This document shows positions 44,509 to 45,699 of a DNA stretch of 64,000 nucleotides, piece by piece. Where the stretch lies: assembly GCA_934876235.1 (NCBI GenBank), contig CAKXKM010000001.1, positions 832-64,831 of the forward strand, given 5' to 3'. Positions within the stretch are counted from its first letter, which is position 1; every line of letters begins with the position of its first letter. Under the pieces are notes generated by a model. The model saw only the letters and a list, made by a program, of their open reading frames with translations. It was not told the DNA's origin and searched no databases. The DNA comes from Collinsella sp. AF02-46-1 (GTDB lineage: Bacteria > Actinomycetota > Coriobacteriia > Coriobacteriales > Coriobacteriaceae). A program made the position numbers and the translations under genes.

Positions 44509-45699
44509 ATGACCAATTCTCTGCCCATGAAGACCCGCGCGATGATGTACGAGCAGCAGCTCGATCACCTGCCCCGTCTTGTGGACGAAATGTACCGAAG
44601 AATCGAAACACTCGCCCCGAAGCGCTATGCGGGCATCGTGCACGACAGCGACACGACGGACGCGGGACGTCCGGCAGCCGCGCATCTTCACGTGATGATG
44701 GAGTTCCAGAATCCGCGCTCGCTCAATAGCATCGCGAAGCTCCTTGGAGATAAACCTGAGCGCATCGAGGCTTGGAAGGCAGGTGTGGAAAACGGTTTTT
44801 CCTACCTGTGCCACAGAACGGATGGCGCACGATCCAAGCATCAGTACGACCCCAAAATCGTGCGCTCCAATTTCGATTACCCAGCGCTACTTGCTTCTAT
44901 TGAGTCGCGCGTTGCTCGAACGAGGTCCCATAGCAGCATCAAAGTCCTTCTCGATGACCTTCTCGAAGGTCGTATCGACAAGGAGTCCTTGATCTCTCAG
45001 CTCTCCGGATCCGAATATGCCCGGACATAGCGTCAGATCGAAGACGTTTATGCACGCCGCCTTCAGGTTCAGGCCCGGGAATGGCGGGGGTTGATGCTCA
45101 AGGGCGAAAGAAGGGTGGAATCAGTTTGGATCTTCGGGCCTGCTGGAACGGGGAAGTCCACCCTCGCAAAGCTCTATGCGAAGCGGAAGGGCGAACCGTT
45201 CTTCGTCTCTGGATCTACGAGAGACATCTTTCAGGGGTATGAGGGCAAGCACACGGTGATTCTTGACGAACTTCGTCCCTCATCCATCCCCTACGCCGAC
45301 CTGCTTCGCATCACGGATCCCTATGCGATGGAGCATGAGGTGATGGCACCGTCCCGATATTCCGACAAAGCGATAGCCGCCGATCTCGTAATCGTCACGA
45401 CGCCCTACAGCCCCTTGGAATTCTATGGAGAACAGATGCGCCGATCCGCGACTTATCGTCCGCAAAACGATGTCGACGGATTTGGTCAACTTGAGAGGCG
45501 CCTCTCCGTCGTTGCGGAGATACAGACGAGGGAGATCTGTCTCTCTGAGTTTAGGCACGATCTCGACGGATACTGGCCGGTCGAAGGTTCCTCTCGTACA
45601 AACCCATATTCGAGTTATGCGCGAGGACTCGCCCCCTCGTCCTGCGCCAACGCTCTTTATAAAGAGCTTCTCGACACCGTTTCGCACTTGACAGCTTAA
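44509..45699 (+). CDS. replication initiator Rep: N-terminal HUH endonuclease domain plus C-terminal SF3-like P-loop NTPase. The reading frame is interrupted by an in-frame TAG at 45028-45030 (possible pseudogene or readthrough).
   Basis: HUH motif AAHLHVMMEF and a Tyr motif SYLCHRTDG lie in the N-terminal ORF (44509..45030). Walker A IFGPAGTGKST, Walker B TVILDEL and a motif-C-like LVIVTTP lie in the second ORF (45091..45699). Both ORFs are in the same frame and separated only by the single TAG. Confidence 0.6.

Follow-up and report, generated by a model that had tools for sequence, protein, structure and literature searches.

How should a replication initiator gene that is cut in two by a single stop codon be read, as a programmed split, as an artefact or as a dead gene, when the mobile element that carries it appears to have kept spreading? 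The question is raised by a 64,000-nucleotide stretch of the genome of Collinsella sp. AF02-46-1 (GenBank assembly GCA_934876235.1, contig CAKXKM010000001.1, positions 832 to 64,831, forward strand), hereafter the window, in which a rep gene at positions 44509-45699 is interrupted by an in-frame TAG. We consider it likely, with a probability of about 0.8, that the split rep is a pseudogene within a decaying integrative mobilizable element (IME), killed by one AAG-to-TAG change at codon 174, and not a programmed split. An initial annotation made from the letters of the window without database searches (the first-pass annotation) had listed recent pseudogenisation, a sequencing error and amber readthrough as options. 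The first of these fits best, with the qualification that the mutation is not private to this genome: it is common to the whole element lineage and is accompanied by other lesions in the same module.

The two reading frames are parts of one gene. Open reading frames (ORFs) 44509-45030 and 45031-45699 share a frame that runs over 396 codons from ATG 44509 to TAA 45697-45699, with TAG 45028-45030 (codon 174) between them; the first in-frame starts past the stop, TTG 45091 and ATG 45094, follow after 20 sense codons, the distance originally reported. The 5' part (44509-45030, plus strand) encodes the HUH nuclease domain and the first linker/oligomerisation helices, and residues 37-124 match Rep_OBD/Rep_2 (PF01719; 2.8e-11, 44.1 bits against a Pfam cut-off of 24.6). 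The 3' part (45031-45699, plus strand), which is now untranslated or poorly translated, encodes the remaining linker helix and the superfamily 3 (SF3) helicase domain and matches the SF3 helicase family RNA_helicase (PF00910; 7.6e-9, 36.4 bits against a Pfam cut-off of 21.5). Along with structural matches to RepB and to the Reps of circular Rep-encoding single-stranded DNA (CRESS) viruses, these hits bear out the proposed fusion of an HUH nuclease to an SF3-like P-loop NTPase. Relaxase/MOB, zeta toxin and other unrelated ATPase families all stayed below cut-off in Pfam and NCBIfam, so that the outcome named beforehand as speaking against a Rep did not materialize.

Every motif quoted in the first-pass annotation was found in the translation at its proposed place. 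On the plus strand, the gene encodes the HUH motif HLHVMM (residues 59-64, 44683-44700), the Tyr motif YLCH with the catalytic Tyr99 (residues 99-102, 44803-44814), Walker A GPAGTGKS (residues 210-217, 45136-45159), Walker B VILDEL (residues 250-255, 45256-45273), motif C VIVTTP (residues 294-299, 45388-45405) and a conserved Arg pair (R330/R331, 45493-45507). In a 20-sequence alignment, the HUH histidines H59 and H61, Tyr99 of the Y-L-x-H signature, Walker A and B, and the Arg pair are invariant or nearly so; the same holds for the H59-L-H61 and Y99 columns in a 52-sequence alignment, and the Y, L and H of YLxH are invariant in both.

A search of 5.8 billion proteins returned 264 relatives of the Rep, the best of them 76-80% identical. 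The 120 homologues listed are mostly single proteins of about 385-400 amino acids, and nearly all contain both domains. When the profile of the 20-sequence alignment was compared with the PDB, the nuclease part matched RepB of plasmid pMV158 and the ATPase part matched CRESS-DNA virus Reps, namely those of Vientovirus (9pqj/9pqq) and porcine circovirus 2 (PCV2; 7lar/8xms). Structural comparisons were made with the AlphaFold model of P0001, an intact 76% homologue, in place of the window protein (L-numbers below denote compared loci, that is, copies or relatives, and P-numbers homologous proteins). This model, with a predicted local distance difference test (pLDDT) score of 90, aligned in Foldseek with the Vientovirus Rep 9pqq over 369 columns, with the PCV2 Rep ATPase 8xms at a template modelling (TM) score of 0.71, and with the origin-binding domain (OBD) of RepB (8amt/8amu) at 0.72-0.74. 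The nuclease part of the model thus has a RepB-like fold, and the activity predicted for such a nuclease would be site-specific nicking and joining of single-stranded DNA. In the model, residue 174 is part of a long helix (167-199) that continues directly into the ATPase core at its first strand.

The column of codon 174 is occupied by Lys, encoded by AAG, in close relatives, so that a single A-to-T change gave TAG. The stop is shared: it is present in 21 of 21 copies from other assemblies and in five of five further metagenome contigs that were found by a pattern with the codon left free (NNN), and is identical across 26 of 26 independent assemblies, isolate genomes included. An index of public assemblies contains the exact 173-residue product in 6278 blocks, and the ORF itself occurs on at least 1000 contigs. 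The protein search contained no full-length rep homologue more than 80% identical, and the pattern search with NNN at codon 174, which could have revealed an intact ancestor of the lineage, gave TAG only. The sole full-length member of the cluster, P0133 (396 amino acids, on 2 contigs), has TGG (Trp) in place of TAG, which restores the frame, and additionally Y99C, with the loss of the catalytic Tyr, and G106S. We rejected it as the intact ancestor because TGG at this codon and the missing catalytic Tyr mark it as derived from the TAG allele; it may reflect further drift or errors in short-read unitigs.

The stop codon is one of several lesions. The adjacent upstream gene (42948-44339, plus strand) encodes a 463-residue FtsK/SpoIIIE-like, TcpA-type putative coupling protein that weakly matches PF01580 (23.4 bits, below the cut-off of 24) and is 67% identical to its homologue in locus L009; the gap in this alignment falls in the Walker A motif GKTRSGKTT, from which five residues (RSGKT) are gone, leaving IAGKTTGV at 43623-43646. 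The motif GKTR[SG]GKTT is retained in every relative listed, from Coriobacteriia to Lachnospiraceae and Oscillospiraceae, and the deletion is found in 25 of 25 copies of the lineage. In addition, L022 and L023 have lost 2 bp at 44628-44629, ahead of the HUH motif; frameshifts disrupt the FtsK-like gene of L007, L013, L020 and L023, and an indel affects the integrase of L019. Most copies nevertheless retain a complete integrase, cargo gene and pair of attachment (att) sites. Taken together with a change in the loop of the candidate origin hairpin, the stop codon, the P-loop deletion and the frameshifts point to a dead mobilisation module and not to a programmed split.

The candidate origin lies in the 170-nucleotide spacer that precedes rep, which folds as DNA into two strong hairpins (z = -4.8). 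Hairpin 1 (44345-44380, plus strand) has a 13-bp stem and a loop with CGCAGC; in most relatives, it lies about 35-45 nucleotides upstream of hairpin 2, with compensatory changes in the stems, and it could either terminate transcription of the FtsK-like gene or belong to the origin. Hairpin 2 (44415-44447, plus strand), the candidate origin and nick site, has an 11-bp stem and the loop GAGCTTGTTAT at 44426-44436. We compared 19 distinct equivalents of hairpin 2 with unrelated stems: 17 carry the loop GGGCTTGTTAT, L051 has GGGTTTGTTAT, and the window has the GAG form. Hairpins of the GGGCTTGTTAT type are located 65-200 nucleotides upstream of rep in relatives (L009, L024-L067) from Coriobacteriia and Clostridia. 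A 13-bp hairpin with this loop is also found some 85 nucleotides upstream of rep in the Staphylococcus warneri plasmid p5GD01 (L075, 4668-8 across the record start), an autonomous plasmid whose Rep is only 28% identical. Among the distant plasmids compared, p5GD01 is the only one with this loop form, which is absent from SAP110B, the S. haemolyticus plasmid and pCPa. A constant loop on varying stems is the pattern expected of a rolling-circle nick site, and hairpin 2 is accordingly a candidate origin; in the searchable literature, the loop gave only unrelated primer matches and no description. The GAG form, a G-to-A change relative to the GGG of the family, is found in 23 copies, the window included, and GGG persists in L021, L022 and L023, all of which have the TAG, which makes the loop change younger than the stop codon.

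Separately, the 11-mer GCTCATTTAYG occurs three times, always on the plus strand and always within the element, against a chance expectation of 0.02. Two copies (44406-44416 and 44481-44491) flank hairpin 2 and the third (47040-47050) lies between the integrase gene and attR; they may be bound by Rep or by the integrase through its arm-binding domain.

The element that carries rep spans 7.55 kb and is bounded by a 26-nucleotide direct repeat with a 19-nucleotide identical core (39608-39626 and 47157-47175). On the left, attL (39601-39626, core TCTGTCATGGGAACATCTG at 39608-39626) lies in a stranded 5' fragment of a phosphatase gene (ORF 39590-39652, encoding MQRVLFICHGNICRFRKMPS before its stop), and 20 other copies have the same junction. 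On the right, attR (47150-47175, core 47157-47175) falls within the 5' end of a complete phosphatase gene (47138-47584), the product of which belongs to the low-molecular-weight phosphatases (PF01451, LMWPc, 1.7e-33). The att core encodes the conserved segment LFVCHGNIC, which places the insertion at the codons of the catalytic CHGNIC loop, and the start codon and first codons of the phosphatase gene come from the element (MRKILFVCHGNIC). The repeat is found at both ends wherever the fetched locus reaches them (19 further copies), and attR alone in 3 more. Downstream of rep, a Tn916-type tyrosine integrase of 401 amino acids is encoded at 45772-46977 (plus strand; PF02920, 7e-28; PF00589, 6e-32). 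It looks intact in the window, with the R, HxxR, H and Y motifs present, and is 76% identical to the integrase of an intact sister element. Sister elements share the order of the FtsK-like gene, rep and integrase, with rep intact, and those of L009 and L010 (Collinsella) and L027 (Slackia) demonstrably have the same phosphatase-gene target.

The host is Collinsella (Coriobacteriaceae), where 13 GTDB species representatives carry a copy 98-100% identical, and the element is very common in human-gut Collinsella. Copies are 99.3-100% identical to each other, whereas identity in the adjoining chromosome is 97-98.6% to the left of the element and 90-99% to its right; a near-identical element between diverged flanks indicates spread between Collinsella lineages after rep broke. 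At the right border, identity gives way to about 8% divergence inside the att core (47170) in L012 and L017 and 25 nucleotides past the core in L023; in other copies the switch is 30-190 or more than 500 nucleotides away. These scattered breakpoints (47170, 47201, 47204, 47248, 47367 and beyond 47700) fit a mixture of integrase-mediated spread and homologous recombination. A C/T polymorphism in the core maps to attL or to attR, depending on the genome. In L022, the element is found in a different host background, with a left flank as in L009 and another insert following, and L021 has a different right side. The loci L022 and L023 share the extra frameshift, yet their contexts differ. We infer that movement between lineages occurred at least sometimes by site-specific recombination, and homologous recombination of the flanks probably contributed as well. 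The predicted attP junction, ...CCTATTTG-TCTGTCATGGGAACATCTG-CAGATTCAG..., was not found in Joint Genome Institute (JGI) metagenome contigs or IMG/VR, in keeping with the rarity with which assemblies capture such junctions.

These observations suggest the following scenario. By family resemblance, the intact relatives of about 390 amino acids would be two-domain initiators: the RepB/Rep_2-type HUH nuclease would cut a single strand within the loop of the conserved upstream hairpin and become attached through Tyr99, and the SF3 helicase would then unwind the DNA, serving rolling-circle replication of the excised circle, relaxase transfer, or both. The element is ordered as attL, ABC-F cargo, small ORFs, the putative FtsK/TcpA-like coupling protein, the candidate origin hairpins, rep, tyrosine integrase and attR; its insertion point is the 5' end of the low-molecular-weight phosphatase gene, which it reconstitutes. 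Having moved after rep broke, it would be dependent on helpers: spread after the loss of rep probably involved the integrase with intact sisters helping in trans or in tandem, homologous recombination in the flanks, or both. The origin hairpin of a sister element has the same stem, so that the sister Rep could plausibly act in trans, and tandem arrays permit mobilisation in cis (PMC5704250).

Several considerations weigh against the pseudogene interpretation. Translation of the 173-residue product, with its nuclease motifs all intact, could continue, and such a protein could still nick DNA. Spread without a relaxase and a coupling ATPase of its own would need a helper or homologous recombination, and the origin and nick-site role of hairpin 2 is a candidate one, suggested by conservation. 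Some indels in metagenome-assembled genomes (MAGs) or low-coverage contigs (e.g., L072) may be assembly errors. Finally, the polymorphism counts are small, and replacement ratios are inflated among very close sequences anyway: among the copies, there are 9 replacement and 1 silent changes in the 3' half of rep, 4 and 2 in its 5' half, 12 and 4 in the integrase, 13 and 7 in the FtsK-like gene, 7 and 5 in ABC-F, and 0 and 4 in the 72-residue ORF. The changes in the 3' half of rep include L266F, at an invariant Leu.

The strongest competing explanation, which we nevertheless regard as unlikely, is that the stop created a working nuclease-only relaxase or initiator resembling RepB of pMV158 or the Rel_PF01719 relaxases, which nicks the origin hairpin while a host helicase replaces the SF3 domain; this would explain the continued spread. 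The stop leaves all the nuclease motifs in place, and the N-terminal part can be superposed on the nuclease domain of RepB. IMEs commonly encode PF01719 relaxases without a helicase (PMC5357655), copies of the element in diverged hosts are near-identical, and the 5' half of rep, at 4 to 2, has fewer replacements than the 3' half. However, with the P-loop of the coupling ATPase deleted and the origin loop changed in most copies, the whole module looks dead. Moreover, L022 and L023, with a frameshift upstream of the HUH motif and two flanking contexts, imply movement without need of the nuclease, and the helical region corresponding to the oligomerisation domain of RepB is cut short by the stop. 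Still less probable is the specific version in which the truncated Rep continues to act on the GGGCTTGTTAT hairpin with a host helicase and the transfer machinery of a helper element. If that were true, the wide spread in Collinsella would have occurred because of, or despite, a natural loss of the SF3 domain, and the element would be a living example of the transition between two-domain YLxH Reps and pMV158-type Reps that is discussed in PMC6668415.

A functional Rep in one or two pieces, made by reading through or suppressing the TAG or by separate translation of the helicase half from TTG 45091 or ATG 45094, is very improbable. The downstream frame is open for 222 codons with the helicase motifs all intact, and gene callers predict a 201-residue product. 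Nevertheless, TAG is an ordinary stop here: of the 34 longest ORFs in the window, 9 end with it, the ABC-F gene of the element among them, and there is no tRNA in the window; on these two grounds we ruled out amber reassignment. The 9-to-1 ratio of replacement to silent changes in the downstream half, L266F included, likewise speaks against readthrough. There is no Shine-Dalgarno-like sequence at a usable distance before 45091 or 45094, and a product restarted at residue 195 would be without the conserved helix 175-194. The last possibility, a sequencing or assembly error in the window alone, is refuted by the identical TAG in 26 independent assemblies and the 6278 indexed blocks and retains a negligible probability.

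The two-domain architecture has already been described twice, as Rel_PF01719-PF00910 (PMC5357655) and as the YLxH supergroup of pCRESS (PMC6668415). The former are putative relaxases of IMEs, in particular IME_Class_4 of streptococci (Coluzzi et al. 2017, PMC5357655; Guedon et al. 2017, PMC5704250). The window element resembles these IMEs in the combination of the same two Pfam domains in one protein, in the compact succession of an FtsK-like TcpA gene, the relaxase gene and a tyrosine integrase gene, and in att repeats in a conserved host gene. It differs in that the host is actinobacterial (Collinsella, Coriobacteriia), insertion is into a low-molecular-weight phosphatase gene at its 5' end, an excisionase gene is lacking between rep and int, and in the window copy the relaxase gene is interrupted by a nonsense codon and the TcpA-like protein has a deletion in its P-loop. 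Among the features of IMEs, the integrase and the att repeats are thus present; an intact relaxase (TAG in 26 of 26) and an intact coupling ATPase, which is optional in the class, are not.

The YLxH supergroup comprises pCRESS4-8, the 'pCPa-like' Reps of integrated bacterial plasmids (Kazlauskas et al. 2019, PMC6668415). Shared with the window are the HUH nuclease joined to an SF3 helicase, the YLxH signature in motif III (YLCH here) and residence in a site-specifically integrated element without capsid genes; the window Rep is assigned to this supergroup as a whole, by the fusion and the signature. Unlike Reps of the supergroup, the window copy is a pseudogene. Distant relatives, at 25-29% identity, include Reps of small Staphylococcus and phytoplasma plasmids, that of pCPa among them. 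Similarity to RepB of pMV158 (3dkx, 8amt) extends to the nuclease fold and motifs, with TM 0.72-0.74 to the OBD, and similarity to CRESS Reps to the ATPase fold (TM 0.71, PCV2), with identities to RepB and CRESS Reps of only 16-22%. RepB differs from the window Rep in being without a helicase domain. CRESS viruses have a capsid gene, no integrase and a loop nonanucleotide that differs from GGGCTTGTTAT, in contrast to the window element, which is integrated and yielded no capsid or phage family match among its ORFs in Pfam or NCBIfam. Phage records gave only partial, nuclease-only matches to the Rep.

Tandem accretions of mobile elements offer another parallel. In the cis-mobilizable elements (CIMEs) and decayed IMEs found there (PMC5704250), as in the window, att sites are kept and the transfer module is disabled, and the L022 copy next to another insert at the same att site, as well as L021 with its different right-hand flank, conform to this arrangement. 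The integrase gene, in contrast to strict CIMEs, is intact in most copies, and the element is therefore less decayed. We also considered IME_Rho_tet (PMC12904643), which is unrelated, with a serine recombinase and a MobC-type module.

The pseudogene interpretation has consequences for annotation. The 173-residue 'Rep family protein' and the 201-residue 'hypothetical protein' in thousands of public Collinsella assemblies would be halves of one dead gene, and neither would be a plasmid marker or a signal of a CRESS-like virus in gut metagenomes. The element would furthermore provide a clear natural case in which a working relaxase and coupling ATPase are missing and copies are still nearly identical across diverged hosts, a situation relevant to the continued movement of decayed elements and of the cargo they carry, in this case an ABC-F ATPase. 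The residual interest of the locus is in the abundance of the broken element in human-gut data, in its spread despite a dead transfer module and in the GGGCTTGTTAT hairpin, whose candidacy as the nick site of the Rep family can be tested.

The remaining genes of the element include the cargo gene (40354-41892, plus strand), which encodes an ABC-F ATPase of 512 amino acids with two ABC_tran domains (PF00005 twice). Its best match is the ribosomal-protection ABC-F model NF000355 (NCBIfam; 300 bits, below the cut-off of 380), and from sequence similarity the protein could be an antibiotic-resistance determinant outside any named antibiotic-resistance (ARE) family, which might explain the prevalence of the element. 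The ORF of 72 amino acids (42729-42947, plus strand) abuts the FtsK-like gene and is called as a gene in public assemblies. Neither this ORF nor those of 130, 86 and 98 amino acids match any Pfam or NCBIfam family, so that no excisionase was identified. A GC-rich hairpin followed by a T-run after rep (45707-45745, plus strand; inverted repeat I5) is, from its sequence, probably a terminator; a scan for promoters and terminators gave nothing above shuffled expectation, and known RNA families were not found within the element. The 3' arm of this post-rep hairpin is also the right arm of an 18-nucleotide perfect inverted repeat (39703-39720 and 45728-45745), the left arm of which lies about 80 nucleotides inside attL.

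Left of the element, the segment 35400-39530, from a major facilitator superfamily (MFS) gene to attL, is a block of lower GC content with genes for phosphotransferase system (PTS) components EIIC and EIIB, a glycoside hydrolase 4 (GH4) and an RpiR-type regulator. L009 (3357-4727) and L022 (1-2750) have an AAA_14/DUF4143 gene where the window has the PTS/GH4 block, which makes the left neighbourhood itself variable. One contig with the Collinsella element and its flanks, L011 (SFFY01000062.1), is binned in a MAG labelled Bacteroidales, probably through a binning error. Upstream of the PTS/GH4 genes, positions 35367-35426 contain two 23-nucleotide copies of ATTTCGTGTATTTCAGATACACG, a near-perfect palindrome pair with an operator-like appearance.

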